A stretch of DNA of 32,000 bases, from NCBI GenBank assembly GCA_047651235.1, contig CP178758.1, forward strand, positions 2,010,001-2,042,000, written 5' to 3'. Below are positions 3,350-31,818 of this stretch, in pieces. The translations under genes and the position numbers were made by a program. Source of the stretch: Candidatus Electrothrix yaqonensis. GTDB taxonomy: Bacteria > Desulfobacterota > Desulfobulbia > Desulfobulbales > Desulfobulbaceae. The notes under the pieces were generated by a model. That model made no database searches, was not told where the DNA came from, and saw only the letters and a list, made by a program, of their open reading frames with translations. The first letter of the stretch is position 1. Every line of letters starts with the position of its first letter.

Positions 3350-3982
3350 TCATAGGCAGTGATCCTTTTTTTCCCGATAGTCGAACGTTCGGACACCGGC
3401 GGTAATACCTCTCAGTTCGTCAAGAGAGGTGTCAGGAATAAATCTGTCCAGTAGCTTTCGCAACGTATCCAGTCCGTTGCTGTCATCTTTTCCCGCGACA
3501 AGGAGGAGATGATAGTCCATGATCCTTCGCAACGGTAATAGACTCTGTATTTCCCGCTCAATCAGTTGGACCTGTCCTCCTTTTCGTGAACCAGAAGCAG
3601 GAAATTTTGAGCTATCAAGAATCTGGATAAAAGAGGTTTTGTCAGCATAGGGCAGGGGGCCTTCTGGCTGCGAGTCATGGATAAAGTAGTTGGCAAGAGC
3701 TGCCTGAAGAAATTTTCCGCATATTTTGGTTGGCAGAAATCCAGATTCTTCTATTTCTATGATTGCCCTGATTTCTCCAGCGCAAAGGATGAGCAGGTCA
3801 ACACAGCACATCCGTGTTTCCCGTCCTTTCTTGGGGCCGACAAATAAGGGGAGATGTTGTTTTCCATCACAGTTTTCATCGCAGGCCGGATCACGCAACA
3901 GCTTATACTGACCAGGGAAATGCTGTTCAATGGTTTCTGCCAACGCATTAGCTACTGCAAGATGTAAGGGGTGCTTCGTCAT
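3350..3982 (-). CDS. Hypothetical protein, possible PD-(D/E)XK-like nuclease fold
   Basis: ORF 3350..4009. The Met at 3982 (MTKHPLHL) lies 2 nt after the glnS stop. The segment CVDLLILCAGEIRAIIEIEESGFLPTKICGK resembles a D...E-x-E...K nuclease core. This is tentative. Confidence 0.6.
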   Translation of the reverse strand: MTKHPLHLAVANALAETIEQHFPGQYKLLRDPACDENCDGKQHLPLFVGPKKGRETRMCCVDLLILCAGEIRAIIEIEESGFLPTKICGKFLQAALANYFIHDSQPEGPLPYADKTSFIQILDSSKFPASGSRKGGQVQLIEREIQSLLPLRRIMDYHLLLVAGKDDSNGLDTLRKLLDRFIPDTSLDELRGITAGVRTFDYREKKDHCL

Positions 3983-3984
3983 TA

Positions 3985-6777: not shown

Positions 6778-6849
6778 TCAAGGCTGAGGAAGGCATTCCT
6801 CGGCGCGTTGCATACGGTGCAGCACCAAGTCCTTCTTCCATTCCGTCAC
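6778..6849 (-). pseudogene. HEPN partner stub (23 codons) left downstream of the MNT gene
   Basis: The GTG overlaps the MNT stop as GTGA, the same junction as at 29284. VTEWKKDLVLHRMQRAEECL resembles HEPN N-termini, then hits a stop. It partly overlaps, in another frame, a cupin-like reading FLSLDPHPAEGGYFRRTHEYYR (6723-6800). Confidence 0.4.
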
Positions 6850-7160
6850 AGTCTGACTGCTTCCTGCAGAACCTGCCGGTGGAAGGGCATAACCTGAAAG
6901 ATACCACTGTTCCACTCCTCACGATTCCACACGATTGAGGAAATGATCTCCCCGGACTCCCATTCTATTTCGTAGAGCCTGTGCCGGATTCGGTCCTTGC
7001 GTTCATCGCTGACATGACCGGGAACCAGAATAAGTAAATCCCAGTCTGACTCCCGGACGGCATCCTGACGGGCGCGTGAACCGTACAGCAGGGTCTCGGC
7101 ATCAGGTTCCAGTTCCAGAACAGCCTGTTTTATCTGATCAAGGAGCTTGTTACCGTTCAT
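6846..7160 (-). CDS. Minimal nucleotidyltransferase (MNT, antitoxin-type), apparently orphaned
   Basis: 104 aa with the Pol-beta NTase signature LLYGSRARQDAVRESDWDLLILV. Confidence 0.85.
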   Translation of the reverse strand: MNGNKLLDQIKQAVLELEPDAETLLYGSRARQDAVRESDWDLLILVPGHVSDERKDRIRHRLYEIEWESGEIISSIVWNREEWNSGIFQVMPFHRQVLQEAVRL

Positions 7161-15222: not shown

Positions 15223-16030
15223 TCAGCTGAGCCTGACTATCTCCTGAAGGATTTGCTCAATAACTTCAGTATTGTAAATTTTCTTCTTTTTTCCGTTTCC
15301 TTTGATGGAATACACGAAAAACACCTTGCCGCCAAATTTCTTTGTGAACCGCTCGTGATTTCGGCGGTGCATTTCGAGTCATTGATATTTATTGACAGAC
15401 TGACCGGAGGTAACAGGTTTTATCTGAATGCCGATATAGTTTGAATTGATCTGAATGTAGAAATCAACACCGTAGTGCTCAGTCATAGCTAAGTTTTAGG
15501 ATTGCTATCTCCAAATAAGATACGAATATTAAACGAGTGCGACATGTTCAACCCTAAATTTTAGGCTTTACAAAGCAGTAGGTTCTGTCCCATTCATCCG
15601 GGGCAGGTTCTATTTCCCGGTTCAGAATGGATTCAAGCTGCCCGTAGACAGTGTCAATTTCTGCCCGGTATCCTTCATAGGTCCGGTTAAGCACCAGATT
15701 GTAGGCATAGTCGATACATTCCTCTTCGGATATCGCATTAAGTTCGCTGCGGATGACTTCGGATATTTTGATGTACAGGGTCTGACTAAGTCCTGTTATG
15801 TATTCCTTCGTAATTCTGAGACCTTCTTTTTTCTTCTGTCGGGCATTGCTGAAGTAAAAAGTCTCCCACTCCGCAAAACTGCCCGGAGCACAAGCCCGTA
15901 TCAGTTCAGATGTGGGGCCTACGCTGTATGCTTTGTTCAGCCCCCATCGGTTCATGCCGTAATTCAACAGAGTTTCCCGCCTGAATTTCAGATTTCGCCC
16001 CTCTGCACCGGAGATCCATTCTTTCTTCAT
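15223..16030 (-). pseudogene. Disrupted type II restriction endonuclease-like gene (cognate of the adjacent methyltransferase)
   Basis: The N-terminal piece is ORF 15554..16030, whose start overlaps the MTase stop. The C-terminal piece at 15223..15486 reads MTEHYGVDFYIQINSNYIGIQIKPVTSGQSVNKYQ*LEMHRRNHERFTKKFGGKVFFVYS. It has a D...Q-I-K (PD-(D/E)XK-type) core and an in-frame TGA at 15379-15381. All frames are closed between the two pieces. It is possibly MjaI-like, but that family call is from memory only. Confidence 0.55.
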
Positions 16031-17315
16031 TCTTGTCTCAAACGGAGAAATTTCTGTTTGTTTTTGTACTCGGTCTGCTCGTCAACAAAAACCAGTCCGT
16101 TTTTGATCAGATGGGCATTCAGAAAGGTTCTGTTTTTCAGGTATAAATAGCAGAGGAGGTTGTTGTCTTTATCGTGTTTGTCCCGGTCGAACCGCATGTA
16201 CACCTTCTGGTTTTTTGTTTTCCTCTGCAGAAATGCAACCGCATCCTGATTGCAGGCTGCGTCTTCTTTTATACCGATCAGCCGGACTGTCAGGCCGTTA
16301 CCGAGCTGAACAAGTTCCGGAGTAAGGACTGTTTTCACACTGTGATACTCTTCTCTTTGGCCGGAATCCCTGTTGATTTTTGAACCGAACTGCAGTTTTT
16401 CCGGATCGATTTTTTTATCAAACGCGTGAGGGTCTTTGAAAACATACGGGAGCCTGCTGATTTCCTCGGCAAAATCAACATCTAACTTGCCCTGTTCAGT
16501 AAACTCGTATTCCGCCCCCAATATTTCCACCTGATTGATCTGGAGCTTCTTTTTAATAAAGGGTATAAATTCAGCATTTATTTCATAGCCGACTGAATTT
16601 CTGCCGTTATTCTTTGCCGCCAGGGTTGTTGTGCCGCTGCCGAGGAACGGATCAAGGACAGTATCACCGACAAAGGAGAACATCTTGATCAGTCTTTTCG
16701 GTAGCTCTTCCGGAAACATGGCAATATGGCCGTCCTGCTTTGCCCCACGAAAATTCCAATGCCCGGCAAAGTACTCCTTCCATTCCTCCTTGGTCATTTT
16801 GGATAATTCTTTTATCTCTTTGGTCGCCTTTTTCGGGGTACCGAGCTTCTTGAAAAGGAGAATAAATTCATAATCAATAGAGAGAATACCATTGCGGGGA
16901 TGAGGAAAACTGCCCATGATGCTGGCCCCGCCTGTGGTATTAGTGGTTGTTTTTTTTGCCATATCACCGCCCCCATGTAGTCAAATCCGATGCTCTCACA
17001 GAACTTGATGATTTCCGTCCGGATCGGAATGACTTTATAGCGGCCGTAATAGACCGAACGGGCGAACTGATCCCCGATATTGATACAGAGCCTGCAGCCG
17101 TTATCGAGCACCCTGTGACATTCATTCCAGACAAGATTCAACGGGTTGATATAGCTTTCGTAGCTGTCATTGAAGCCTATCTGCTCCTCTGTGCCGTAAT
17201 CCTTCAGCTGCCAGTACGGCGGTGAGGTGATGACAAGATGAACGGACTTGTCGTTCAGTTCGTTCATTTTTCTGCTGTCGCCGCAGATAATCGTATGGCG
17301 TGTTGTCGTGTTCAT
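16027..17315 (-). pseudogene. Beta-class N4-C/N6-A DNA methyltransferase with a C-terminal SNase-like domain, split by a frameshift in an A8 tract
   Basis: ORF 16812..17315 carries motif IV (VITSPPYWQLKDY). ORF 16027..16962 carries motif I (DPFLGSGTTTLAA). The two join as ...GAVIWQKK/TTTNTTGGASIMGSF across the T8 run at 16950-16957. The C-terminal 130 aa (LTVRLIGIKEDAA...CYLYLKNRTFLNAHLIKNGLVFV) look thermonuclease-like. Confidence 0.8.
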
Positions 17316-20984: not shown

Positions 20985-21138
20985 AATCTCAAAAAAACAC
21001 CAGCAGATATACCGTAGCAAGGGCGATATGCATTGCCGCAAAGGGTAAGGCTTTGCGAACAAAACCGCCGAAGGACAGTTTGAGCTTGTGTTTATGAATA
21101 ATGGTGACAGCAACCAGGGTTGAAGCACTGCCGATGGG
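20985..21138 (-). pseudogene. Detached duplicate of the last about 50 codons of the permease gene (direct repeat of 21487-21640)
   Basis: 154 nt are roughly 90 percent identical by eye. It translates PIGSASTLVAVTIIHKHKLKLSFGGFVRKALPFAAMHIALATVYLLVFF*, against ...AALHITLATVYVLVFF* for the attached copy. Most differences are synonymous. Confidence 0.85.
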
Positions 21139-21413: not shown

Positions 21414-21490
21414 AAGTCGGGCTGTTATTGTCTCAGGAAAAAGGAGTAGGGCTATGTGTCAGCCAATGATAATGTTTTTCTTTGTAAATC

Positions 21491-22867
21491 TCAAAAAAAC
21501 ACAAGCACATAGACCGTGGCAAGGGTGATATGCAGTGCCGCAAAGGGCAAAGCTTTGCGAACAAAACCTCCGAAGGACAGTTTGAGCTTGTGTTTGTGAA
21601 TAATGGTGACAGCAACTAGAGTGGAGGCACTGCCGATGGGCGTGAGGTTGCCGCCGAGGTTGGCGCCGAAGATCACGGACCACCAGAGCGGTGAGTCAGC
21701 TGCGGTTCCCTGGGCAGCAAGGATCTTGCCGAGCATGGCGGCCAGCGGAATATTATCCGTCACACTGCTGAAGGCAGCGGACGAGAAGAGCAGCGCACCG
21801 ATCCCGAAACGACTTTCCTCTTCACCGATAATTCGGGTGATGCCCTGGCCGATCAGTTCCAGCACCCCGGCGTATTCCAGCATATGGATCACCACAAACA
21901 GGGCCATGAAAAAGCCGATCAGGTCCCAGTCAACCGCTTTATAAAATTGGTCCACCTCATGCTTGAAGCGGATCAGCATGATGAGGGCAAAGGTCAGGGC
22001 CACGTAGCCCATGCCCAGACTGCTGACCACCGGCAGAACAGAGGTGGTGGCAATCACCAGAATGAACGCGCCCAGCATAATCGCACCGAACCAGAAGAAT
22101 CCCTGGCTCTCAATGCCGTCGTTCTCATCGAACCCGGCAACATGCTGCTTGGCTGCGGCGATCTCCTCGGCATCGCTCAGCTTCCTAATCCTGAAGAGAC
22201 GGGCACCCAGCCAGATGGTGGCACAGGTGGCCACGAGCACGTAGGGACTGGCCTTGAGGAAAAAGGTCATAAAGCTGATACCGGCGGTGGTGCCGATAAT
22301 GATATTGGGCACCGAACTGATCAGGGTGAGCAGGCCGCCGATATTGGTGAGTAGTCCCTCAATCAGCAGAAAGCCCAGCAACTGCTCTTCCCGCTGCAAC
22401 CGCTTCAGGGAGACTGCGGACAGGGAACCGACAATGATCATGGCGGTCACGTTGTTCAGCACGGCAGAAAACACCACGGTCATGATCCCGTAGTACCAGA
22501 GCAGCTTCAGGGGATCACCGCAGGAGAGCTTGGTGAGTTTAATGGCAATCCAGGTGAACAGACCGGAGCGGGAGGTCACATCGACAAAGATACTGGAGCC
22601 GATAATGATGGCGATCACGCCCCAGTCAATGGCTTCAATATACACCGGCATGTTGAGCGTATGCCCATTCGGCAGGGTAATCGGGCCAAAGGGCAGCAGG
22701 CCCAGTGCCCCGTCCAGCAGCAACAGAGCTGCGGCAAACAGGCCAACGATCAGGGATTTTTTGGCGTGTATCTTTTCTTCCAGTGCCAGAGAGACGATCA
22801 GCAGGACAAGAACACCGGTAAAAAAAATGGTGGTGCCATGCGAGGCATGGGTAACGGCATGTTCCAT
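21491..22867 (-). CDS. ArsB/NhaD-superfamily (SLC13-like) ion/anion permease
   Basis: 458 aa and polytopic (about 11-12 TM). It has the duplicated hairpin-type motifs NNVTAMIIV and GGNLTPIGSASTLV. Confidence 0.75.
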   Translation of the reverse strand: MEHAVTHASHGTTIFFTGVLVLLIVSLALEEKIHAKKSLIVGLFAAALLLLDGALGLLPFGPITLPNGHTLNMPVYIEAIDWGVIAIIIGSSIFVDVTSRSGLFTWIAIKLTKLSCGDPLKLLWYYGIMTVVFSAVLNNVTAMIIVGSLSAVSLKRLQREEQLLGFLLIEGLLTNIGGLLTLISSVPNIIIGTTAGISFMTFFLKASPYVLVATCATIWLGARLFRIRKLSDAEEIAAAKQHVAGFDENDGIESQGFFWFGAIMLGAFILVIATTSVLPVVSSLGMGYVALTFALIMLIRFKHEVDQFYKAVDWDLIGFFMALFVVIHMLEYAGVLELIGQGITRIIGEEESRFGIGALLFSSAAFSSVTDNIPLAAMLGKILAAQGTAADSPLWWSVIFGANLGGNLTPIGSASTLVAVTIIHKHKLKLSFGGFVRKALPFAALHITLATVYVLVFF

Positions 22868-23721: not shown

Positions 23722-23958
23722 TTGGTCACCGTAGTACTGTGAGGATAAGCAGGATGGCTTGCCCTCTCAGCAGACAGGGTTCAGAGAGTAATAGCTTCAC
23801 AGCTATTAGTAACAGGAATGAAATCGTTCTGTCAACAAACGCTTGCAGCGATCCATTATAGGTTGGTCGCAGCACCCGGCCTGTCCTTATCCTTCTTGCT
23901 CTTTCCTCCGCAATAGGGTATCTCATTGGAGATAATGATGAATCATTCTGGGTCGTAC

Positions 23959-24058
23959 GCCCCAGGGTTGAAACTATGTTCGGTGCGTCCCTCCGGGACG
24001 GCGGTTCTCCATTGTCCCTGAGGGACAAACGATAATAGCCCCGTGATTTATCGCGGGG
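23959..24058 (+). repeat. Hairpin-rich about 100-bp repeat, copy 1 (partner at 26238-26337)
   Basis: ccagggttgaaa...gtccctccgggacgg...ttgtccctgagggacaa...cgataatagccccgtgatttatcgcgggg aligns with the copy downstream of the STAND gene. The last 29 nt are identical. Confidence 0.75.
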
Positions 24059-24099
24059 GAACGTGTTGGTGGTTTTTGAAAGAGGAGCAGGAGGCAGTG

Positions 24100-26087
24100 A
24101 TGAAGGATAACAGGTTCGACAACAAAGACGGCGGAGACCAGAACATTGCCCAGGGGGATAGGGCTGTGAGCAAGGTCACCCAGACAAGCATCGGCAGTAA
24201 CAACGCCTCTACCGGCACAGGCGATATCAACATAACAAACAAGAACTATCTGCCCGCCGAAGCGGTGCCCTCCTCCATCCTTCCCAGCGAAGACTCCATC
24301 TTCCTCCACCGGGAGGAAGAACTATCCTGGCTGGACAACCACCTGCACCCGGACAAGGTGGTCGCCATCTGCGCACCAGGGGGCATGGGCAAGACCGCGC
24401 TGGCAGCCCGTGCTTTGGGTATCAGGGCTGAGGCTGATTTGGAGCAACAGGTTGCTGCGGCTCTAGGCAGTAAGCAGGCATTGCTGGTTCTGGACGGGGC
24501 TGAGGAGGCTGACGACCTGGATGCTGTGCTGCGTCTGCGCGGGACCTGCGGGGTGCTCATCACCACAAGGAAGCGGACCGACTGCGGACCCTTGCGCCTG
24601 GATCTACCACCCCTGCCTGAAGATCAGGCGGAAGAGGTGTTGCAGGCCTACAGCCAAGTGACCGGGGAGAAGGAGGCCATCCAAGGCATTGAGAAGATAC
24701 TGGGTGGCTGGCCCGTGGCCCTGCGTATTGCTGGTCATTATCTGCACAGTACCGGGGAGCCTGCGGCAGACTACCTGCGCTGGCTGAAGAAGCGGCCTTT
24801 CAGGAAGCTGCGGACTGGTGGCGAGCATCAGAAAGACAACGCGGCTCTGCTGCTGGAACGCAGTGTGGAGCAGGTGAGCGCGGATGCAGTCCTGGTGCTG
24901 CGGCTGGCCGGGGTGCTGGCCTTTGCGCCTATCAGCCTTATGTCGGTGATGTTTGTTTTGTCGACAGATGGTGAAGATCAGGAGGAGCTTGAGCTGCGCA
25001 GCATGGAGGCCGTGAATGAGCTGGTCAATTACGGGCTGCTGGAACGCCGGAAGGAGGGCCTGCATATCGGCCATGCCCTGATCCATGAGTATGCTGCTGG
25101 GCAGTTGGTTTTGGGGAAAGAGGAGCTGGGGCGGGTTGCTGCTTTTTATATTGATTGGTGCAAGGAACAGAGTGCTGCCGGGGTACCGGGCTATGTCCGC
25201 CTGGATGGGGAACGGGTGCATTGCCTGCGGTTGATTGGGGCCTGTTTGGAGAGGGAGTTGTGGAGGGAGGTGAAAGGGTTGGTCGGGGAGATGTGGGAGT
25301 ACCTTGACCGACAGGGCCATTGGACAGAGCAACTGGCTGCCGTAGAGATGCGCCTGACTGCGGCCCGGCAGGCAGGCGACCGCCAAGATGAGGCAATTTG
25401 CCTGAATAACCTGGGCTACACCTGTTGGCGGCGCGGGGAGCAGGAACAGGCCCTGCGCTGGTATGAACAATGCCTGCCCATACGCCGCGAGCTGGGCGAC
25501 CGGAAGAATGAGGGTGTAACCCTTAACAATATTGCTGTAATTTATTGGCAGCAAGGCAAATATGATGAGTGCTTGGAACAATGTAAGCAGAGTTTAAGCA
25601 TCCACCGAGAGATTGGCAACCGGAGGGAAGAAGGCGTAACCCTGAATAATATTGGCAGGGCTTATAAGACACAAGGCTATAATGAGAAAGCATTGCAGTA
25701 TTATGAACAGTGTCTGCCTATCGCACAAGAAGTTGGCGATAAGATCGGGGAAGGGATAACCCTGAATAACATTGCTGGCATCTATACCGTGCGCAAGGCA
25801 ACCATGCTATGAGTTTGAAGTATCTTAAACAAACATCAGGAATATACCAAGAGATTAGTGACAGGGCCGGAGAGTTACTAACATACTGGAACATCGGCCT
25901 CACTTATGAAGACATGGGCGATCTTGCCGAGGCAGAGAAATACATTACTCAGGCTATACAGATTGCTAAGGCCATTAGCCATCCTGAATTAATGACATAC
26001 CTTAAGGGGTTGGCAGCGGTACAGGCAAAGAGACGGGGGATGTATGGACAATTCCCTTTAAGTGCCCGTAGTGATGACTACCTATAG
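24100..26087 (+). pseudogene. STAND NTPase: NB-ARC-like P-loop domain plus TPR array, with a frameshifted 3' end
   Basis: The Met at 24100 follows AGGAGCAGGAGG. It has Walker A (APGGMGKTALA), Walker B (ALLVLDGAEE) and a GxP-like motif (GGWPVALRIAGHYL). There are 5 or more TPRs (LNNLGYTCW..., LNNIAVIYW..., LNNIGRAYK..., LNNIAGIY). The frame breaks at about 25783-25787 (atctataccgt) and the TPR reading YRAQGNHAMSLKYLKQ... continues in ORF 25809..26087. Confidence 0.8.
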
Positions 26088-26237
26088 TGATTTAGTGTGG
26101 AATCAGGTCGCATGGCATTTCGTCATCACCGTGTAGGGGCAAGCATGCCGTGTCCCTACGGAAATCCTCGCCCCCCCCACCACCTAAGGCGGTTCGCAAA
26201 CCGCCCGTGGCGTTTCCGGCATTCCACACAGGAGGCC

Positions 26238-26337
26238 CAGGGTTAAAAGGGCTCTATTCGCTTCGTCCTTTTGGGACGGCTTCCCTTGTCCCGTAGGGAC
26301 ATCCGATAATAGCCCCGTGATTTATCGCGGGGCGAGG
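26238..26337 (+). repeat. Hairpin-rich about 100-bp repeat, copy 2
   Basis: See 23959-24058. The two copies bracket the STAND NTPase gene in direct orientation. Confidence 0.75.
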
Positions 26338-26487
26338 CATGGTGGTTATCCGTCATCCCACACAGGGTGTTACCCTGTGCTGGTTAAATATAACCCCTTC
26401 GGGGTATGGTGCGTCGGCCTTTCTGCCGAAAGGGCTATATTTAGCCAGCCCGGTGCAACGCGCCGGGTGGTGTCCCTCCCTCCCCCG

Positions 26488-26574
26488 GTATGACTAGGCT
26501 CATACGCTCCGTATGACGAGGCTCATACCAGCCCATATGACTAGGCTCATACGCTCTGTATGACGGGGGTCATG
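26488..26574 (+). repeat. Tandem 23-25-bp repeat (about 3.7 units), each unit containing TATGA-N6-TCATA
   Basis: The units are gtatgactaggctcatacgctcc / gtatgacgaggctcataccagccca / tatgactaggctcatacgctct / gtatgacgggggtcatg. Confidence 0.85.
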
Positions 26575-26607
26575 TTTCCCTTCCCCACTGCTGATTCACT
26601 CGGTACC

Positions 26608-26844
26608 AGCATGCTGACTCAGGCCGAAACAGTGGCTCGAAATGTTCCGAAATGGATCAGCGAGGCCGGATTCACAGCCCTTTCTGTCGGCCCCGGTCAT
26701 GCCCAGCTTGCCGGGGAATGGGAAATGTCGCACCGTGACCCCTTTGACCGAATGCTTGCGGCCCAGGCAAAGCTGGAAAATATCGTTCTGGCAAGCGTTG
26801 ACAAAGAATTGAGACGATTCCCTGTTCAAATCATGAGGAAATAA
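26608..26844 (+). pseudogene. C-terminal half of a COG3744-type PIN toxin gene, copy 1
   Basis: VPKWISEAGFTALSVGPGHAQLAGEWEMSHRDPFDRMLAAQAKLENIVLASVDKEL carries the HRDPFDR-L-AQA motif. The N-terminal DTH/SxWE half is absent. A 77-codon ORF from the ATG at 26611 is possible. Confidence 0.65.
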
Positions 26845-26965
26845 AGGGGGAGGGGCCAGCATAATGTTTCCGGGAGAGCAGGCTTGGAGTTCGGCGCATG
26901 CTTCGGTATAAAAAGGATCGAAAACCGTGTGCGGCGAGGCGTCTGCAGAAGGGGCAGGATGCGAG

Positions 26966-27385
26966 TTATACATCAAAGGGGTTAATGAGGGGCAATGCTG
27001 CAATATCTTTAAAGTCTTTGGTGTTACGTGTTGCCAGGCTGAACCCGTTGGATACGGCGACGGAAGCAATCTGGGCGTCTTCCACGCTCATTGTTATGCC
27101 TTTTTTACGAGTATCGGCAATAAGTTCTGCATAGATAGAAGCCTCAGTTGCCCCGAAGGCCAGGCAGCGGTCAGAAAAATTACTGAATACCTCTTGGGCT
27201 GCGGCCAACAAGGATTGCTTTTTTCTGCTTTCCGGCAGGAGAGTAATACCGAGTTCAATCTCTGCCTTGGTGATAGCGCAGATAAAAAGGTCGGTGACGA
27301 TTTGCTGATCCAGCCAGGAGATAACCCGCTTATCTGGAGACGGGCGCATGGGTTCCGAGAGGATATTGGTGTCAAGAAGGATCAT
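26966..27385 (-). CDS. vapC: PIN-domain toxin VapC (FitB-like)
   Basis: 139 aa with MILLDTNIL, acidic residues in the expected positions (AEIE, VEDAQIA) and TRNTKDF. It overlaps the upstream antitoxin by 4 nt. Confidence 0.9.
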   Translation of the reverse strand: MILLDTNILSEPMRPSPDKRVISWLDQQIVTDLFICAITKAEIELGITLLPESRKKQSLLAAAQEVFSNFSDRCLAFGATEASIYAELIADTRKKGITMSVEDAQIASVAVSNGFSLATRNTKDFKDIAALPLINPFDV

Positions 27386-27630
27386 TCCTCATCAGCCTGC
27401 AAATCAAGGGAACGGGGAGCAGAGTGAACAGGGGCTATATCAATTCCGCCGATGGGGTTAAACTTTTGTTGAATAAGTGTACCTAATCCTTTTTTTGTAG
27501 CAGGTTGGAGAATTGCGGCCCGCAAAATCCTTCTGGCTTCCTCTTCCATTGAACAGGCATGACGGGCAGCCTGCATTCGCAGGCCCTTTTTCACGGCAGG
27601 ATCAAGGTTTCGAATGGTAAGACTCGGCAT
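27382..27630 (-). CDS. vapB: Ribbon-helix-helix antitoxin VapB (FitA/StbC-like)
   Basis: Internal Met of ORF 27382..27708. MPSLTIRNLDPAVKKGLRMQAARHACSMEEEARRILR is the typical RHH N-terminus. Confidence 0.8.
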   Translation of the reverse strand: MPSLTIRNLDPAVKKGLRMQAARHACSMEEEARRILRAAILQPATKKGLGTLIQQKFNPIGGIDIAPVHSAPRSLDLQADEE

Positions 27631-27680
27631 CAGAACACTCCATAGGTTGATGTGGTTGAAAAAACGTTGATGTGCGTTTA

Positions 27681-27800
27681 TTATAGGGAATGCATGCATT
27701 GCATGCAAGGGATAATGCGCAGCCGCAGTTCGTTTTCCGTCTCATTTAAGGCAAGGAGGATGTCGGCGGGGAAGTCTACAGATATTGATTGCGTATTCAT
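27681..27800 (-). pseudogene. N-terminal stub of a UPF0175-family antitoxin
   Basis: GGAGG lies 9 nt before the ATG at 27800. MNTQSISVDFPADILLALNETENELRLRI matches UPF0175 N-termini, then the reading degenerates (IPCMQCMHSL*). Confidence 0.5.
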
Positions 27801-27837
27801 TATGTTATTAACCTCCAAAGCTCCTTTTGTTTTATTC

Positions 27838-27973
27838 CCTTACAATTACATCATTCTCAGTATATTCAATTCTTCCCGGAATCTCAACGGCTCCGGTTCA
27901 GCGAATTGAAAATTCACCTGATGAAAAATAACCCTGCTTCCTGATACGCATATTTTCCTGTAGCGGCTCTTTG
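27838..27973 (+). repeat. Leader repeat, copy 1 (partner 31238-31350), here fused to MNT pseudogene copy 1
   Basis: cccttacaat..attctcagtatattcaatt..caacgg..gattga..cctgatga.. aligns over about 125 nt at roughly 75-80 percent identity by eye. Confidence 0.7.
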
Positions 27974-28275
27974 ATGATCCGCATCTGCCTGCGGGAAGAA
28001 GTACATCGTCTGCTTCCTGATGCGAAAGTAATTCTGCACGGTTCCCGTGTCCGCCAATGCAACCCGGCAGGATTCTGACTGGGATTTTTTGATCATCGCT
28101 GATCATCCGTTGGACAGAGAGATCATAACAAAGCTGAAGGATGGGCTGTATGACATTGAGTTGGAAAATGATGAGGTGGGTGAGCAGCATTATACGGAGC
28201 AGGCAGGAGTGGTCTTCGCCTGCATACGATGCCTTGCTGTTCAAAAAGGCGGTGGAGAAAGAGGGTGTAGTGAAA
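27974..28275 (+). pseudogene. MNT nucleotidyltransferase pseudogene, copy 1 (altered 5' end, two frameshifts)
   Basis: MIRICLREEVHRLLPDAKVILHGSRVRQ, then a shift at cgccaat (about 28051-28056) to ANATRQDSDWDFLIIADH... A second shift comes from an extra g in gaggtgggtgagc (about 28176-28180). Confidence 0.75.
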
Positions 28276-28292
28276 CTTGGTGCGTCCCCTAT

Positions 28293-28661
28293 TTAATCAT
28301 CGAGAAATCGGTCTTCATTTCGGAATGCTGTTCTGTAAATGAACTCCAAAACTTCTTTCAGAGAGATTGCACCGCTTTCAACTATCTTTTCGCTGTCGAT
28401 ATGCTTATGGTGCGGAAATGTTGCGAGATGTTTATGATGCGGTGCATTGTCCCAGCGGGCGAGCATGGTTCCCTCTTCACTCTGCCAGTGAAATGAGTAA
28501 TTGCGCTCTGACGCATCCACATACTCTCTAACAAACAAGACGGATTTGTCAACAAAGATTATTTTGATCTTTCGGTAAAATCCGTCTGACCATCTTCTGT
28601 ATTCCTGAATTTCATATCCTTCTATCCAATCTGACTCGTCAAGCAATCTCGAAATTTCCAT
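28293..28661 (-). CDS. DUF6516-like protein (I recall some databases calling this family a TumE-type TA toxin)
   Basis: The Met at 28661 (MEISRLLDESDW) overlaps the upstream gene by 23 nt. The conserved-looking core is YSFHWQSEEGTMLARWDNAPHHKHLATFPHHKH. The family name is from memory. Confidence 0.55.
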   Translation of the reverse strand: MEISRLLDESDWIEGYEIQEYRRWSDGFYRKIKIIFVDKSVLFVREYVDASERNYSFHWQSEEGTMLARWDNAPHHKHLATFPHHKHIDSEKIVESGAISLKEVLEFIYRTAFRNEDRFLDD

Positions 28662-28926
28662 GCCTGACCTCTTCAATCTTGACGGACAATTCGTCAAATA
28701 TTTTTACCTGCGATTTCCATTCAATGTAATCGTCCCATCGGGAAAAGTCTTCCTGTTCGGCATGTTCAACCTGCTCTTTGAATTCATTCCACGGTTGCTT
28801 GTATTTCTGTTCAAAGAGCCGTATTTTTTCGCGTACTGTATGCAGAGCGGCATGGTATTCCATCAGAAGCCATTCCGCGATTTCCTGTCTGTACACTGTA
28901 ACCATGACGTTCTTCTCCGGTTTCAT
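28639..28926 (-). CDS. Small acidic helical protein, putative antitoxin-like partner of the DUF6516-like gene
   Basis: MKPEKNVMVTVYRQEIAEWLLMEYHAALHTVREKIRLFEQKYKQPWNEFKEQVEHAEQEDFSRWDDYIEWKSQVKIFDEL. An alternative start is at 28950. The 5' part of track ORF 28639..29106 is antisense to MNT copy 2 and was discarded. Confidence 0.5.
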   Translation of the reverse strand: MKPEKNVMVTVYRQEIAEWLLMEYHAALHTVREKIRLFEQKYKQPWNEFKEQVEHAEQEDFSRWDDYIEWKSQVKIFDELSVKIEEVRHGNFEIA

Positions 28927-28956
28927 CTTATATGTGGGGCATTTTTCCATATTCTT

Positions 28957-29287
28957 ATGGTAACTTATTTGGTTAATCAGGTCAAGAACCTGCATCAGGT
29001 GCGGGAGGAAGTACATCGTCTGCTTCCTGATGCGAAAGTAATTCTGCACGGTTCCCGTGCCCGCCAATGCAGCCCGGCAGGACTCTGACTGGGATTTTTT
29101 GATCATTGCTGATCATCCGCCGGGCAGAGAGATCATAACAAAGCTGAAGGGTGGGGTGTATGATATTGAACTGGAAAATGATGAGGTGGTGAGCAGTATT
29201 ATACGGAGCAGGCAGGAGTGGTCTTCGCCTGCATACGATGCGTTGCCGTTCAAAAAGGCAGTGGAGAGAGAGGGCGTAGAGCTGTGA
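28957..29287 (+). pseudogene. MNT nucleotidyltransferase pseudogene, copy 2 (full length, single frameshift)
   Basis: MVTYLVNQVKNLHQVREEVHRLLPDAKVILHGSRAR, then a shift at cgccaat (29051-29057), then ANAARQDSDWDFLIIADHPPGREIITKLKGGVYDIELENDEVVSSIIRSRQEWSSPAYDALPFKKAVEREGVEL*. Removing one C gives a spacing identical to the intact MNT at 6846..7160. Confidence 0.75.
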
Positions 29288-29334
29288 ACCGCAAGGAAGA
29301 CATAATCCTCTACTGGCTTGAACATACTGGATAA
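29284..29334 (+). pseudogene. HEPN partner stub (16 codons) after MNT copy 2
   Basis: GTGA start/stop overlap. VNRKEDIILYWLEHTG* resembles a HEPN N-terminus (..YW.EKA..D) and then terminates. Confidence 0.45.
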
Positions 29335-29374
29335 ATCTCAGCCCGTCTTAACGCTATGGAGCACGCTGTACTTT

Positions 29375-29671
29375 TTAATTTCTGCGACCTGACAACGCCC
29401 GCAACACAGCTTTCGGTTCCTTTGCCACAACATTCAGCAGTACACGCGCCGGACCTCGCGGAGTGCGGTCACCCCGTTCCCAGTGGCGAAGTGTCCCCAA
29501 GCTGATACCGAATGCGGAAGCGAATTCCGCCTGGGTCATTCCTATATGCTGACGAACCGCCTTCACATCCGGCTGTGTAACCTCATGCACAACAGCCTTT
29601 ATCGGTTTTCCTTTCGCAAAATCAATAGATTCACGTAGTCCTTGCTGAATACTCTCAAATGCGCTGCTCAT
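29375..29671 (-). CDS. XRE-family HTH antitoxin
   Basis: Met at 29671 (MSSAFESIQQGLRESIDFAKGK...). The HTH is IGMTQAEFASAFGISLGTLRHWERGDRTPRGPARVLL. It starts 1 nt after the toxin stop. Confidence 0.8.
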   Translation of the reverse strand: MSSAFESIQQGLRESIDFAKGKPIKAVVHEVTQPDVKAVRQHIGMTQAEFASAFGISLGTLRHWERGDRTPRGPARVLLNVVAKEPKAVLRALSGRRN

Positions 29672-29672
29672 C

Positions 29673-30038
29673 TCACGCCCCTCTTTGTTTACTTCCATAT
29701 GTCGCCAGCAGTTCTTCGGTTAATTTGGCCAGCATGTTCCGCTCCGCTTTGCTGATGTTCGCCTTTTCGGATTTTCCGAACAAAGTCAGCAGAAACAACG
29801 GGTATTGCTCACTGTGAAAATAGTAGATGACCCGGACACTGCTGCTTTTTCCCGTGCCTTCGCGTTTCCAGCGCAGTTTCCGAATACCGCCTGTACCCTG
29901 AAGGAGTACACCTGCCTCTGGATTGGCTGCAAGATATCGGATCAGATTTTCCCGCTCCGGGGTACGCAGCAATTTTTCCGCACGTCGGATAAATTCCGGG
30001 AGTTCGACTACTGTGTTCATAGGGATATTGTAATCCAT
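29673..30038 (-). CDS. RelE/ParE-superfamily (HigB-like) toxin
   Basis: GGIRKLRWKREGTGKSSSVRVIYYFHSEQYPLFLLTLFGKSEKANISKAERNML is the typical toxin core. An alternative start is at 30020. Confidence 0.8.
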   Translation of the reverse strand: MDYNIPMNTVVELPEFIRRAEKLLRTPERENLIRYLAANPEAGVLLQGTGGIRKLRWKREGTGKSSSVRVIYYFHSEQYPLFLLTLFGKSEKANISKAERNMLAKLTEELLATYGSKQRGA

Positions 30039-30134
30039 TGGATTACTCTTGACAAGAGGGGGAGGTGCCTTGGCGTAAAAAAGGTCAGTGAGAGGAACGC
30101 GGCGTTATGTCGATTTTCCCGCCGTGACCTCTCT

Positions 30135-30362
30135 TTCTGCACGGTTCCCGTGTCCGCCAATGCAACCCGGCAGGACTCTGATTGGGATTTTCTGATCATT
30201 GCTTATCATCCGTTGGACAGAGAGATCATAACAAAGCTGAAGGATGGGCTGTATGATATTGAACTGGAAAGTAATGAGGTGGTGAGCAGTATTATACAGA
30301 GTAGGCAGGAGTGGTCTTCGCCTGAATACGATGCGTTGCCGTTCAAGAAGGCGGTGGAGAGA
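30135..30362 (+). pseudogene. MNT nucleotidyltransferase pseudogene, copy 3 (truncated at both ends)
   Basis: It starts at ttctgcacggttcccgtgtccgccaatgc, which contains the same frameshift context. It reads ANATRQDSDWDFLIIAYHPLDREIITKLKDGLYDIELESNEVVSSIIQSRQEWSSPEYDALPFKKAVE. Confidence 0.7.
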
Positions 30363-30376
30363 AATTTATCTTGTAT

Positions 30377-30685
30377 TCAGGAATCCTGGATCAGAATTCC
30401 GTTTTTCATTATTTCTTTCAGAAAACCGCCTTGATCATGTTTCGTTTCGAGAAGAACCGGTTCAATTCTGTCGTCCACTTCTCTCCTGATCTTCCAGAGC
30501 AGCGGTCTTGTGGAAAAATAATCTCCCTCCATTTCATCAACTATTATGGCGACATCTACATCGCTGTCTTCCCGTTGAGTTCCCCGCGCATAAGAGCCGA
30601 ACAGCATCATTTTATCAAATGCCATATATTGTGACAGGAGACGCTTGTATTGTACCAGTTTTCTTATAACCTCTTCTTTATCCAT
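30377..30685 (-). CDS. Minimal nucleotidyltransferase (MNT) of an intact HEPN/MNT pair
   Basis: 102 aa with MLFGSYARGTQREDSDVDVAIIV. It overlaps the upstream HEPN gene by 22 nt. Confidence 0.85.
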   Translation of the reverse strand: MDKEEVIRKLVQYKRLLSQYMAFDKMMLFGSYARGTQREDSDVDVAIIVDEMEGDYFSTRPLLWKIRREVDDRIEPVLLETKHDQGGFLKEIMKNGILIQDS

Positions 30686-31071
30686 TGTTGCAGTTCCTTT
30701 GCATTTTCAAGTATCTCTTTACAGCGTTCTTCCGTTAAACTTCTCATCAGCTGCTCTTTGTACGTCGGGTATCTGCACTCAATATTCATCGGTTCGAGCA
30801 TGTCGATAAAAAGTTTCTGGTTCTCTGAAAAAGTATCATAAATTTCCGCTTTCTTTGCGAGGTAAGACAAACTGTGGGAAAAAGGGGCCGGTTTGCCGTT
30901 GCCTTTCACGTAGCAGGCCTTGAGTATCTTTTCAACGGACTGGTGGGCCATGAAGCCGACATAGAGATACCGCTTACTCTTCAGCATAGCTTGGGCTGTT
31001 TCAATATCATATTCTGATAATTCAACCCAGTATTGTACTTGATCAGTCATCTCATTATAACATTTCTTCAT
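30664..31071 (-). CDS. HEPN-domain protein
   Basis: 135 aa. YWVELSEYDIETAQAMLKSKRYLYVGFMAHQSVEKILKA ... HSL ... ECRYP is typical of a HEPN four-helix domain. Confidence 0.85.
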   Translation of the reverse strand: MKKCYNEMTDQVQYWVELSEYDIETAQAMLKSKRYLYVGFMAHQSVEKILKACYVKGNGKPAPFSHSLSYLAKKAEIYDTFSENQKLFIDMLEPMNIECRYPTYKEQLMRSLTEERCKEILENAKELQQWIKKRL

Positions 31072-31129
31072 GAGTAATGGGGTCGTCGGACTGAGTTTTC
31101 CCTTCTGCGGAAAATTTCTTTTTTTGTTT

Positions 31130-31236
31130 TATAGCTGGAGCAGTATAAACTGAATACAGGATCAGCTATCTGAAAGGCGTGAAGGCAAAACTTATGCCTC
31201 TTGTGGGCATATTCAAATTATGTTGCTCCAGCTATA
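31130..31236. repeat. 13-bp perfect inverted repeat with an 81-nt spacer, upstream of the HEPN/MNT operon
   Basis: tatagctggagca (31130-31142) and tgctccagctata (31224-31236). Confidence 0.6.
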
Positions 31237-31237
31237 T

Positions 31238-31350
31238 CCCCTTACAATCGTATTATTCTCAGTATATTCAATTTTTCACGAAATTTCAACGGTTACAGTT
31301 TAGTGGATTGAGCATTTGCCTGATGAGGTGCTTTTGTTCCGCAGACGCAA
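31238..31350 (+). repeat. Leader repeat, copy 2, here fused to PIN half-gene copy 2
   Basis: See 27838-27973. Confidence 0.7.
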
Positions 31351-31559
31351 CCGAAGAAAAGACGGCTCGAAGTGTTCCGAAATAAATCAGCGAGGTCGGG
31401 TTCACCGCCCTTCCTGTCGGTCCTGATCATGCTCGGCCTGCCGGGGAATGGGAAACGGAGCACCGCGATTCTTTTGATCGGATGCCTGCGGCGCAGGCGA
31501 AACTGGAAAATGTCGTTCCCGCAGGCGTTGACAAAGAATTGAGGCGATTTCCTGTGTAG
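31350..31559 (+). pseudogene. C-terminal half of a COG3744-type PIN toxin gene, copy 2 (with an in-frame stop)
   Basis: SVPK*ISEVGFTALPVGPDHARPAGEWETEHRDSFDRMPAAQAKLENVVPAGVDKELRRFPV*, with TAA at 31383-31385. DNA similarity to copy 1 continues past the stop to about 31690 (versus about 26905). Confidence 0.6.
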
Positions 31560-31818
31560 ATTATGAGGGAATAAATGAGGGCAACAGGCGGGTGGCCGAT
31601 GCCCGGTACAATGCGTTATGGGTTGTGCAAGGTTTCCGGGGAGTGGGGCTTGATAGCGGCACATGGCTCGGTATGATGAGGGGGGAATGTGTAAGCAGGA
31701 AAGGTGATCTGACCCCGGTTTATGCTACGCTTGTATTCTGCTTGTTTTTTTGAATCCGATACGGTAATTTATTTAAGTTTATTAACCCAATTTATAAAAT
31801 TTATCCATTTTGAACACC

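Follow-up and report, generated by a model that had tools for sequence, protein, structure and literature searches.

A dead MNT antitoxin gene as a possible shared scaffold for the swapping of toxin-antitoxin modules in Candidatus Electrothrix

The window analysed here is a stretch of 32,000 nucleotides (contig CP178758.1, positions 2,010,001 to 2,042,000) of Candidatus Electrothrix sp. YB6 (YB6), which contains between 26.5 and 31.7 kb a block of toxin-antitoxin (TA) genes and gene remnants. Four TA pairs on the minus strand (VapBC, TumE with its partner, RelE/XRE and HEPN/MNT), all confirmed by profile search, alternate with three plus-strand copies of a single MNT (minimal nucleotidyltransferase) pseudogene, and the block also holds decayed PIN fragments, a UPF0175 stub and a HEPN stub (Table 1). 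The modules were typed by Pfam/NCBIfam profile search, and repeat pairs in the window were obtained from a blastn self-comparison and a repeat search.

Table 1. Genes, gene remnants and repeats of the YB6 block (positions are those of the window)
Feature	Position	Strand	Remarks
Tandem units	26489..26573	.	3-4 x 23-nt, small palindrome in each (TATGACNAGGCTCATA)
R_A, PIN (VapC-type) 3' half + ~20 nt downstream	26609..26867	+	ORF retained; Pfam PIN positions 55-118 of 120
VapC toxin, intact	26966..27385	-	PIN PF01850, E 5e-12; VapC models
VapB antitoxin, FitA-like RHH (ribbon-helix-helix), intact	27382..27630	-	PF22513, E 5e-18
UPF0175 antitoxin stub, N-terminal part only	27681..27818	-	Identity to intact UPF0175 genes
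R_B, native UPF0175 upstream region	27833..27924	-	Sigma-70-like promoter 27887-27859, TTGAGA-17-TATACT
PIN 5' fragment, codons 2-26, frameshifted	27923..27997	+	Same PIN gene as R_A; 92% identity to L071 199-273
MNT pseudogene C1	27990..28272	+	Shared +1 C frameshift, private extra G; 3' end is variant tail TGAAACTTGGTGCGTCCCCTATTTA
TumE (DUF6516) toxin, intact	28293..28697	-	PF20126, E 3.5e-24; TumE model
TumE partner, 95 aa, presumed antitoxin	28639..28926	-	Kept together with TumE in CP130629
Outward promoter (putative) + 5'UTR segment ('type II' 5' end of repeat)	28938..28989	-	TTGACC-17-TACCAT match
MNT pseudogene C2	28957..29287	+	Most complete copy; shared +1 C frameshift
HEPN stub	29284..29334	+	16 first codons of original HEPN partner, then stop; start overlaps MNT stop
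XRE/NadS-type HTH antitoxin, intact	29375..29698	-	HTH_3, E 1e-8; NadS, E 5e-15
RelE-family toxin, intact	29673..30038	-	PF06296, E 2e-8; own promoter-like site 30055-30027
MNT pseudogene C3	30135..30362	+	Truncated both ends; shared +1 C frameshift; left end at hot spot TTCTGCACGG
MNT antitoxin, intact	30377..30685	-	PF18765, E 2e-13; PF01909, E 3e-11; MntA
HEPN toxin, intact	30664..31071	-	PF05168, E 1.3e-24
Imperfect inverted repeat	31130..31236	.	27-nt arms, 53-nt loop, 85% complementary
R_B', second UPF0175 upstream copy	31235..31326	-	Same promoter-like site, 31289-31261
R_A', decayed second PIN 3' half	31364..31588	+	In-frame stops

A preliminary description of the locus, made from sequence alone, had recognised four minus-strand two-gene TA modules alternating with plus-strand copies of one MNT pseudogene, and both claims held. 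The modules match TA families on profile search with the exception of the 95-aa TumE partner, for which no significant Pfam/NCBIfam family match was found, and the pseudogene copies share 92-93% identity and a frameshift. The stop codon of vapB overlaps the start of vapC. The RelE gene lies in sequence 89% identical to positions 3817-4499 of the related locus L043, with differences skewed to the third codon position, and the intact MNT gene is a distant paralogue of the dead MNT repeat.

C1 and C2 are 92.9% identical in the blastn self-comparison (27990-28270 against 29000-29279) and C3 is 92.1-92.5% identical to both, with E-values for the MNT copies of 1e-90 to 1e-117. The extra C common to all three breaks the frame just past the GSRxR motif. 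With the frameshift corrected, C2 translates to a protein that shares 85-90% identity with the intact MNT proteins (115 aa) of other Electrothrix. In L043 the full gene, of which the repeat is the 3' two-thirds, exists intact along with its HEPN partner; the HEPN stub aligns with the start of the intact HEPN gene there, and its junction with XRE/RelE is identical in locus L058. The putative promoter segment at the 'type II' 5' end is fused to the start codon of the gene on its left. In YB6, CP130629, GW3-4, E. aestuarii and L056 this segment adjoins the start codon of an antitoxin gene, which is either the TumE partner or the VapB that belongs to a 150-aa PIN; these two genes are unrelated.

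The PIN 3' halves R_A and R_A' are 82.5% identical (26634-26845 against 31364-31575). The claim that a half PIN gene repeat brackets the block held, but the repeat is shorter than had been claimed (~26634-26855 and ~31364-31588), and the claim could be extended in that the missing 5' end was located at 27923-27997, where a three-way junction alignment shows it fused to C1 at an 8-nt microhomology (TGCGGGAA). R_A shares 87% identity with an intact PIN gene, that of L071 (358-613). In R_A' an internal deletion joins PIN upstream sequence to the PIN 3' half, with L071 positions 95-127 corresponding to window 31334-31366 and 383-599 to 31364-31580. The UPF0175 and HEPN stubs were likewise upheld by alignment to intact genes, that of HEPN in L043 and those of UPF0175 in L039 (positions 4926-5043) and L043, with which window 27714-27831 shares 92% and 91% identity respectively. 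R_B, which adjoins the UPF0175 stub in L058 too, is 79% identical over 92 nt to R_B' (27833-27924 against 31235-31326). The 23-nt tandem units lie at the block's left edge, against the truncated PIN gene (three matches against 0.04 expected), and, among the genomes compared, are present in YB6 only. The 27-nt inverted repeat lies between the HEPN start and R_B' and has no copy in the other loci compared.

The repeats of YB6 are not an assembly artefact, since the unique-to-repeat junctions are 100% identical to independent short-read contigs of SRR31704081, which themselves end inside the repeats, and the same array architecture is found in three other closed genomes.

Comparison with related genomes showed that the arrangement is not fixed and that cargo varies between repeat copies. 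Arrays with the frameshifted MNT repeat and different cargo occur in three or more further Electrothrix species and in metagenomes from sediment: the E. aestuarii array carries HepT/MNT, DUF3368/UPF0175, three PIN/VapB pairs and Fic, that of GW3-4 carries HigBA and a minus-strand MNT gene, that of CP130629 carries TumE/TumA and Fic, and the metagenome contigs hold more cargo types. All three YB6 copies have the +1 C frameshift, and so do 12-13 of the 15 'type II' copies, which come from four genomes and several metagenomes; intact 115-aa MNT genes lack it. Window 28035-29168, comprising C1, TumE, its partner and the 5' part of C2, corresponds to CP130629 9947-11032 with both junctions the same. 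The RelE/XRE unit is seen again in L043 and L058, and the PIN150/VapB unit occurs twice within one E. aestuarii array and once more in L056; where units are common to YB6 and its relatives, their neighbours differ. The cargo shows an orientation bias, with some 16 of 20 neighbour types on the opposite strand, which calls for selection or a directional mechanism. At the loci examined nearly all MNT copies are in TA/defence arrays and have the same orientation relative to neighbouring copies. The USP-adjacent chromosomal site, occupied in YB6 by a STAND-like NB-ARC/TPR gene and the TA array, holds Hachiman in E. laxa and AbiH in E. aarhusensis and is thus a variable defence hot spot.

Pairwise identity of the MNT copies is mostly 90-93.5% within and between species alike, apart from one decayed E. 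aestuarii copy (AEST_a, 81.5-88.4%), and the YB6 copies (92-92.5% to each other) are no closer to one another than to those of other species. Housekeeping DNA of YB6 and E. aestuarii, by comparison, is 75.6% identical over 4.5 kb, and the highest amino-acid identity of PurM in the database is no more than 83%, YB6's own excepted. Among the dead copies the three codon positions vary evenly (21/22/24 sites), whereas the consensus of these copies differs from the intact gene at 7/3/14 sites; the dead copies therefore drift without coding constraint. In 15 copies with 31 parsimony-informative sites all four gametes are present in 41% of site pairs, which makes the repeat a recombining, mosaic family. 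These data bear on the notion of a static graveyard, in which an old local MNT-HEPN tandem duplication in the YB6 lineage was followed by separate insertions and decay, with roleless repeats and no ongoing exchange. The many stubs, frameshifts and truncated genes and the differing ends of the three YB6 copies would agree with it. It is nevertheless very unlikely given the lack of any closer kinship among the YB6 copies, their mosaicism, and the occurrence of the frameshifted repeat and of whole units with identical junctions, including cargo of 98.5% identity, in species with ~76% identical housekeeping DNA; the PurM values show that the compared genomes are not near-identical strains.

The cargo in question is the TumE/TumA cassette, which is 98.5% identical across species while its flanking repeats are ~90-92% identical, the switch sitting exactly at the edges of MNT homology. 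Neither flank of the unit has a donor-like tract beside the cargo. A simple crossover within the repeat would usually leave such a tract, which counts against that model; gene conversion limited to the repeats would yield such a sharp switch and needs no enzyme.

The ends of the repeat copies cluster. Of about 14 copies that are 5'-truncated and independently flanked, seven begin inside a 16-nt stretch, where the left end of the MNT element has a small hairpin (GCACGG-TTC-CCGTGC). On the right, at least nine copies out of about 20 finish no more than ~12 nt from the MNT stop; both tests used windows picked after seeing the data. The left hot spot is also, in L039, the exact position of a MITE that has a 9-bp target duplication. 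Roughly half of the truncated copies have their ends elsewhere (29096-29152). The clustering is tighter than plain homologous recombination or random illegitimate joins predict and remains unexplained.

The preliminary statement that the window has no integrase, IS or tRNA held in part. There is no tRNA in the window and no integrase among its ORFs tested, but a PD-(D/E)XK 'transposase' gene (Rpn-like, PDDEXK_2) lies at 5833-6720, 20 kb from the block. That no IS or recombinase is in sight is true of the immediate locus only: PDDEXK_2 genes are found in or beside the arrays of L040, L043, L070 and probably L058 (by sequence resemblance only), and related arrays also contain IS elements. No tyrosine or serine recombinase was found within 10 kb of four related arrays and no dif-like site (E. 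coli-type consensus) in the window. The claim that the spacers are not attC-type held, with no R''/R' pair (RYYYAAC ... GTTRRRY) at 50-160 nt on either strand of 26-32 kb.

One alternative is a dedicated activity, specific to a site or a structure, that would move cassettes by acting where the MNT element has defined ends (the left hairpin, and the MNT stop/HEPN start on the right), its enzyme supplied in trans, for example by Rpn-like PD-(D/E)XK nucleases or by a HUH or other enzyme encoded elsewhere. In its favour are the clustering of both ends though flanks differ, the identity switch at the element edges, the uniform orientation, the PDDEXK_2 genes of the window and related arrays, and the L039 MITE. 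It is considered unlikely: neither a motif common to the cargo-side flanks nor target-site duplications were found, the inverted match between the two ends is weak and judged by eye only, and the truncated copies that end elsewhere and the lack of attC or dif-like sites argue against it. The repeat also lacks significant single-stranded DNA structure (z -1.2 and -2.0), the PIN-to-C1 junction is plainly microhomology-mediated, and repeat-confined gene conversion accounts for the identity switch.

Less likely still is a non-autonomous transposable element (MITE-like or an IS200/605-type miniature) that inserts between TA modules. Its discrete size of ~255-350 nt, many copies, clustered ends, star-like identity pattern and subterminal left hairpin would suit such an element. 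However, no convincing terminal inverted repeats or target-site duplications were seen at the junctions (by eye, no formal scan), the near-confinement, at the loci examined, to TA/defence arrays in constant orientation speaks against it, the copies are mosaic and not independent descendants of a master copy, and the repeat is clearly part of a gene that is intact with its HEPN partner in L043. A chromosomal integron, or an integrase-less attC cluster (CALIN), is suggested by the short co-oriented cassettes, many of them TA, with a conserved repeat between them. It is all but excluded: 26-32 kb contains no R''/R' pair, no integrase was found among the tested ORFs of the window or up to 10 kb from four related arrays, and the repeat is a gene remnant without attC-like folding.

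The favoured reading, to which a probability of about 0.6 is given, is that the block is one case of a genus-wide, integrase-free modular TA/defence array shuffled via dead-MNT repeats. It is proposed that an MNT antitoxin gene lost its HEPN partner, then gained the +1 frameshift and was then copied many times, some versions bringing a 52-nt outward promoter and 5'UTR that may drive the module on their left. Because the copies are ~230-350 nt long and ~90-93% identical, they would supply dispersed direct homology, and RecA-type homologous recombination and gene conversion, with copies in the same array or in DNA of other strains and species, would duplicate, delete, reorder and replace modules. 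New cargo-repeat junctions would arise through rare illegitimate joins at microhomology, with gene stubs as leftovers. The repeats, the shared frameshift, the varied cargo, the shared units with new neighbours, the mosaic copies and one microhomology junction are shown. Homologous recombination as the moving force is inferred from the mosaic copies and shuffled units and has not been observed directly; no structural variants or circles were observed. Against this reading stand the clustered repeat ends, the missing donor-like tracts beside TumE/TumA and the orientation bias of the cargo. Within these limits the earlier proposal of a repeat-mediated hotspot of module swapping is supported, none of its three refuting conditions having been fulfilled. 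The dead-MNT repeat thus seems to be a shared scaffold for TA module swapping without a dedicated recombinase.

The likeness of the YB6 array to known systems is drawn here from general knowledge. Integron arrays and CALINs also consist of short co-oriented cassettes, often TA, with a conserved repeat and cargo that varies among relatives, and such arrays can lack an adjacent integrase. The YB6 repeat, in contrast, is a 230-350-nt dead gene fragment and not a folded attC of 60-140 nt, core-site pairs are missing and no IntI was found, cassette ends are clustered and not precise, and expression is inferred to come from per-unit promoters instead of a single Pc. IS26 translocatable units and pseudo-compound transposons share the alternation of repeat and cargo and grow or shuffle by units of one repeat and one cargo that recombine with another copy, a RecA-dependent route included. 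Unlike IS26, the YB6 repeat has no transposase or terminal inverted repeats, its copies are 7-10% diverged and mosaic, and its cargo consists of chromosomal TA/defence genes and not of resistance genes.

In the orphan toxin-immunity modules downstream of rhs and cdiA genes, fragments of a conserved gene precede successive modules and provide homology for swaps, and stubs and dead fragments are typical as in YB6. There the fragment is part of the toxin gene and recombination re-arms a large main gene, whereas in YB6 it derives from an antitoxin gene that is dead, unrelated and on the other strand, and each module is complete and self-sufficient. The pdif (XerC/XerD) modules of Acinetobacter plasmids are similar in that TA and other small modules move between short conserved sites by means of a recombinase whose gene lies elsewhere, so that none is in sight; in YB6, however, no dif-like site was found in the window, and the repeats are ten times longer and in direct orientation. 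Defence and TA islands at hot spots resemble the USP-adjacent site, which carries different systems in each species. What distinguishes YB6 from ordinary defence islands is its organisation by an internal repeat scaffold common to different species and different chromosomal sites.

The repeat on which the block of Candidatus Electrothrix YB6 is built corresponds to the 3' two-thirds of an MNT gene, and its three plus-strand copies (C1, C2 and C3), already recognised in the preliminary description, are confirmed by self-comparison. All three share an extra C just 3' of the GSRxR-coding motif, to which C1 adds a second, private frameshift; with the extra C removed, the translation is 85-90% identical to intact 115-aa nucleotidyltransferases of other Electrothrix. 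The extra C is found in 12-13 of the 15 'type II' copies from all sources (those with a 52-nt promoter/5'UTR-type segment at the 5' end) and is absent from intact genes, which implies that one dead copy was propagated. The dead-copy consensus differs from the intact gene by 7/3/14 changes over the three codon positions; variable sites among the dead copies are spread evenly (21/22/24), and coding constraint therefore ended with the frameshift. The same evenness rules out that the 76-aa ORF remaining after the frameshift is under selection as a coding sequence. A role as structured DNA or RNA is likewise unsupported, as single-stranded DNA fold z-scores (-1.2 and -2.0) are not significant and Rfam finds nothing within the array. 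The 52-nt segment holds a minus-strand promoter-like match (TTGACC-17-TACCAT) and, in different units, lies directly against the start codons of two antitoxin genes unrelated to each other, so that the repeat seems to supply an outward promoter and leader; this remains a possibility, with promoter activity inferred.

Toxin-antitoxin (TA) modules were defined as two small adjacent or overlapping genes with products above curated toxin and antitoxin family thresholds. VapBC, TumE, RelE/XRE and HEPN/MNT satisfy the criterion for type II/VII systems as far as family matches go, the partner of TumE having no family match in the profile search; toxicity and neutralisation are inferred. All four modules lie on the minus strand, and cassettes are co-oriented likewise in three related loci (L038, L039 and CP130629). 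The elements listed in the preliminary description (repeats, four modules and stubs) are all present. Its claim of two-gene minus-strand TA modules held for all four pairs, and its UPF0175 and HEPN stubs are true remnants with intact counterparts in other loci. The claim that neither tRNA nor integrase is present also held, with no tRNA in the window and no integrase among the scanned ORFs. The claimed absence of IS elements must be qualified by a PD-(D/E)XK 'transposase' (Rpn-like, PF12784) gene 20 kb away, which directly adjoins a small MNT gene, also on the minus strand. The bracketing half PIN gene was only partly borne out: the repeat is shorter than claimed, and the missing 5' end of the gene was found fused to copy C1. 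The direct repeats of the block are nested, with PIN halves outermost, then UPF0175 upstream segments and MNT copies innermost, and several segments reappear in other orders in two related loci (L058 and L071). An imperfect inverted repeat, of which no copy was found in the other loci compared, is situated between the start codon of HEPN and the second UPF0175 promoter segment.

Coordinates and profile scores of features in the window and in the compared loci
Feature	Position	Strand	Remark
Dead-MNT copy C1	27990-28270	plus	C1-C3 92-93% identical
Dead-MNT copy C2	29000-29279	plus	
Dead-MNT copy C3	30135-30362	plus	
ORF left after frameshift	29057-29287		76 aa
Promoter/5'UTR-type segment	28938-28989		52 nt
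PIN 3' half, two copies	26634-26845; 31364-31575		82.5% identical (self-comparison)
PIN 5' end	27923-27997		codons 2-26
92-nt segment, two copies	27833-27924; 31235-31326		79% identical (self-comparison)
Inverted repeat	31130-31236		27 nt, 53-nt loop
VapBC: PIN		minus	Pfam 46.9 bits (cut-off 23.6)
VapBC: FitA-like RHH		minus	Pfam 65.3 bits (cut-off 27)
TumE		minus	Pfam 85 bits (cut-off 23.4)
RelE/XRE: RelE		minus	Pfam 34.7 bits (cut-off 27)
RelE/XRE: HTH_3 (HTH_3-NadS antitoxin)		minus	Pfam 35.5 bits (cut-off 23)
HEPN/MNT: HEPN		minus	Pfam 87 bits (cut-off 22)
HEPN/MNT: Polbeta (MNT)		minus	Pfam 50.9 bits (cut-off 26.9)
Unit collinear with CP130629	28035-29168		CP130629 9947-11032
TumE cassette	28273-28989		
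TumE deletion in CP130629	28549-28594		L046 10204-10467
PD-(D/E)XK 'transposase'	5833-6720	minus	
Small MNT gene	6846-7160		
MjaI-type restriction-modification genes	15554-17315	minus	methylase ORFs 16027-16962 and 16812-17315
CitMHS-matching fragment	20988-21138		same gene part as ~21490-21640
NB-ARC/TPR gene	23760-26090		two ORFs
Double-hairpin copies	24013-24058; 26287-26332	minus	exact repeat 24030-24058 = 26304-26332
GC-rich intergenic stretch	26090-26590		
MITE in L039	7003-7226		224 nt
Flanks of L047 and L046	L047 413-3227; L046 1627-5802		
Defence genes beyond USP	L003 6459-9870; L005 9104-9967		E. laxa; E. aarhusensis

Arrays on the same repeat occur in other Electrothrix. E. aestuarii (CP159373) has six to seven copies alternating with minus-strand HepT/MNT, DUF3368/UPF0175, three PIN/VapB pairs and a Fic module, Electrothrix GW3-4 (CP147990) has two that flank HigB/HigA and adjoin a minus-strand MNT gene, and CP130629 has two that flank TumE/TumA, followed by Fic and PIN/VapB. 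On sediment metagenome contigs the neighbours are a subtilase, another PIN pair, PDDEXK_2, an IS630 element and a deoxynucleoside kinase with a dCTP-deaminase-like gene. For the genomes and contigs compared, the repeat is genus-wide in Electrothrix arrays and surrounds changing cargo, and the chromosomal contexts of the arrays differ between species. An ancestor-like state is seen in an E. aarhusensis-type contig (L043), where an operon of intact MNT (115 aa) and HEPN (129 aa) adjoins UPF0175, VapBC and PDDEXK_2 genes and a RelE/HTH module; in sister strains HEPN is deleted and a 29-codon stub remains. No tyrosine or serine recombinase was found among the genes called within 10 kb of four related arrays.

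Some units appear to move as blocks. A stretch that runs from the 3' part of C1 through TumE, its partner and the promoter segment into the 5' part of C2 is collinear with CP130629; both of its cargo-repeat junctions are identical in the two genomes, and its neighbours differ on both sides. The cassette itself is 98.5% identical (10 mismatches over 671 nt, with 2 of 195 third codon positions changed), as against 91.6% and 89.9% for its MNT-proper flanks (Fisher 5e-9), and the identity switches fall right at the edges of the MNT homology, which is attributed to gene conversion that would act only inside the homologous tract. The RelE/XRE unit recurs in L043 at 89%, with differences biased towards third positions (17/8/47), and in L058 with the same HEPN-stub junction, and a PIN150/VapB unit is present twice in the E. 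aestuarii array and again in another related locus (L056).

Two further observations concern CP130629. Its TumE gene carries a 46-nt deletion relative to YB6 in a cassette that is otherwise ~99% identical, and the toxin was therefore inactivated recently. CP130629 (L046) and a strain sharing its TumE/Fic array at 98% (L047) differ on both flanks, with an OLD-TOPRIM and UvrD-helicase pair in one and a 1391-aa protein in the other, and the right flanks diverge ~100 nt upstream of the Fic module. The pair is Gabija-like by its domains only, without a defence-system profile.

Identity among the copies is star-like: 92.0-92.5% within YB6, 90.7-92.9% when YB6 is compared with GW3-4, and as high as 93.5% when it is compared with E. 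aestuarii, where one decayed copy is lower (81.5-88.4%). Housekeeping DNA of YB6 and E. aestuarii is 75.6% identical over 4.5 kb (one species pair), and no other PurM in the database exceeds 83% identity to that of YB6; species distance was judged by this database-wide ceiling and not by comparison with CP130629, whose AIRS gene is HypE-like, not PurM. Since neutral drift under vertical descent cannot hold 92% identity while the core stands at ~76%, the copies must have, through horizontal exchange, a common ancestry younger than the species. The alternative that they arose by lineage-specific tandem duplication is rejected because the YB6 copies are no closer to each other than to those of other species, and also because the three end differently. 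The copies are mosaic, with all four gametes at 41% of site pairs among 31 informative sites, and together with the shared units that have different neighbours this meets the criteria of a recombining family, the events themselves not having been observed directly.

The most economical account is recombination and conversion between the dead-MNT copies, and an integrase-free array shuffled in this way is favoured over other readings with a probability of about 0.6. It is proposed that the copies act as dispersed direct homology, and that exchange between them by homologous recombination and gene conversion, both inside an array and with DNA acquired from other Electrothrix, would duplicate, delete, reorder and replace the intervening modules, conversion maintaining the copies as a mosaic pool. 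New junctions would arise by illegitimate joining, with which many stubs are consistent; at the PIN-to-C1 junction there is an 8-nt microhomology (TGCGGGAA) inside a patchy match of 14 out of 19. The nested direct repeats may reflect successive recombination among a limited vocabulary of segments. Swapping by recombination between repeats, as suggested in the preliminary description, is in this sense supported as an interpretation; the mechanism is still inferred, no recombination event having been observed. Three outcomes named there as refuting it were not met. An assembly artefact is rejected, as independent short-read contigs (SRR31704081) reproduce the unique-to-repeat junctions at 100% identity and end inside the repeats, which are therefore genomic; a fixed arrangement in relatives is not seen, the same repeat bracketing different cargo in other Electrothrix; and the minus-strand pairs do match TA families.

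The recombination account leaves the clustering of repeat ends and an orientation bias unexplained. On the left, of ~14 copies that are truncated at the 5' end and have independent flanks, 7 start inside a 16-nt interval at the small hairpin TTCTGCACGGTTCCCGTG, and on the right at least nine copies with different downstream flanks stop within ~12 nt of the MNT stop/HEPN start (binomial values of 3e-6 and 3e-8, both post hoc); among 20 distinct 3'-end neighbours, ~16 are encoded on the opposite strand. These patterns could stem from breakage stimulated by the hairpin, from selection for loss of the HEPN toxin and from avoidance of read-through, and a nuclease or recombinase acting in trans at the clustered ends is not excluded. 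Rpn-like PDDEXK_2 genes are recurrent residents of related arrays (L040, L043 and L070). In one related locus (L039) an MNT copy is interrupted by a MITE that has perfect terminal inverted repeats of 14 nt (GGGTGCGGCTCTTC) and is flanked by a target duplication of 9 bp (AAAGTAATT); its insertion point coincides exactly with the left hot spot, at which many of the truncated copies start. Neither TATGAC repeats nor the MITE inverted repeat is vocabulary common to the arrays compared. A bolder reading sees here an undescribed cassette system of cable bacteria, in which a domesticated dead-MNT element, marked by a hairpin on its left, ending on its right at the former MNT/HEPN boundary and equipped with an outward promoter, would serve as docking site and expression platform for TA and defence cassettes. 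These would move precisely, and also from one species to another, by means of a nuclease or recombinase supplied in trans, for which the Rpn-like PD-(D/E)XK proteins of the arrays are candidates, making the system a functional analogue of the integron assembled from different parts. The clustered ends leave a chance for a truly new cassette-capture system, which is nevertheless considered unlikely.

The array stands in a variable part of the chromosome. To its left are ordinary genes, namely HtrA, MgtE, an MjaI-type restriction-modification pair, PurM, a MoCF_biosynth-type molybdenum-cofactor gene (MogA/MoaB-like), a probable TrmFO, a CitMHS transporter and a tandem USP. DNA similarity to E. 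laxa, E. marina and E. aarhusensis ends with the USP gene at ~23.75 kb, beyond which YB6 has an NB-ARC/TPR (STAND-like) gene and then the block, E. laxa has Hachiman (HamA/HamB, with HamB split in two) and E. aarhusensis has AbiH. With different defence genes in each species the site is therefore a variable defence hot spot; next to USP in these three relatives no homologues of array parts were found, only other defence genes.

Several side observations belong to this setting. The GC-rich stretch before the block has many short hairpins (fold z-score -6.8 against shuffles), ends in three to four TATGACNAGGCTCATA units found only in the YB6 genome, stands in place of the PIN gene 5' half and has no Rfam match except a sub-threshold hairpin motif. 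Two 46-nt double-hairpin copies in direct orientation stand on either side of the NB-ARC/TPR gene, with 29 nt repeated exactly. Their resemblance to Rfam Acido-Lenti-1 (26 and 31 bits) stays short of the gathering score of 37; they may be a REP-like element or the ends of an insertion. Above threshold, Rfam finds only a TPP riboswitch in the window. The MjaI-type endonuclease gene is accompanied by an N6/N4 DNA methylase split into overlapping ORFs, the larger fused to a staphylococcal-nuclease domain, and a 150-nt stretch matches part of the relatives' CitMHS gene and is likely a small duplicated piece of a gene end, downstream of the transporter gene.

It has long been puzzling how TA and small defence modules of the chromosome can move when no mobile element is recognisable, and YB6 and its relatives offer a concrete and testable case: a dead gene fragment at ~90-93% identity across species with core DNA at ~76% (one pair measured) brackets changing modules, of which at least one cassette hardly differs between species. 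Should the repeats be recombination handles, they would show how neutral gene debris can become infrastructure for gene exchange and would provide a marker by which such arrays could be recognised in metagenomes; should the clustered ends be the target of a dedicated enzyme, a new cassette-capture system would be at hand. Cable bacteria, which grow as long multicellular filaments in sediments rich in phages, appear to maintain a common TA/defence repertoire with fast turnover. A full-text literature search returned no description of TA arrays or integrons in cable bacteria.

Integrons and CALINs are marked by attC sites (R''-L''...L'-R' imperfect palindromes of 50-150 nt) between cassettes, and a complete integron has an intI tyrosine recombinase with attI and Pc at one end. 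The YB6 locus resembles them in its co-oriented cassettes of one or few genes each; membership is rejected, as a core-pair scan without covariance model found no RYYYAAC...GTTRRRY pairs at 50-160 nt on either strand of 26-32 kb, the repeat shows no attC-like folding, and no integrase occurs in the regions searched. In pdif modules each unit is flanked by 28-30-nt XerC-spacer-XerD sites; these are rejected since no dif-like site with at least 9/11 XerD-arm and 6/11 XerC-arm matches exists in the window, an approximate search given that the native Electrothrix dif is unknown. IS26-type arrays are built on an insertion sequence, which carries a transposase gene and is bounded by terminal inverted repeats; here the repeat is an MNT gene fragment without transposase, and by eye, with no formal scan, neither inverted termini nor target-site duplications are visible at the MNT-copy junctions. 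A MITE or other miniature transposable element would be marked by terminal inverted repeats, target-site duplication and dispersed single-copy insertions; of these the junctions show, by eye, no duplication, and the two repeat ends only a weak, gapped inverted match (10/12). In its working the locus comes closest to integron arrays and IS26 translocatable-unit arrays, being a member of neither, and shares with rhs/cdiA orphan toxin-immunity arrays, to which it does not belong, the use of gene fragments as recombination handles. What is known is the kind of system, a modular TA/defence island with cassette turnover; what is new is its scaffold, a propagated dead antitoxin gene that is shared across species and possibly brings a promoter.
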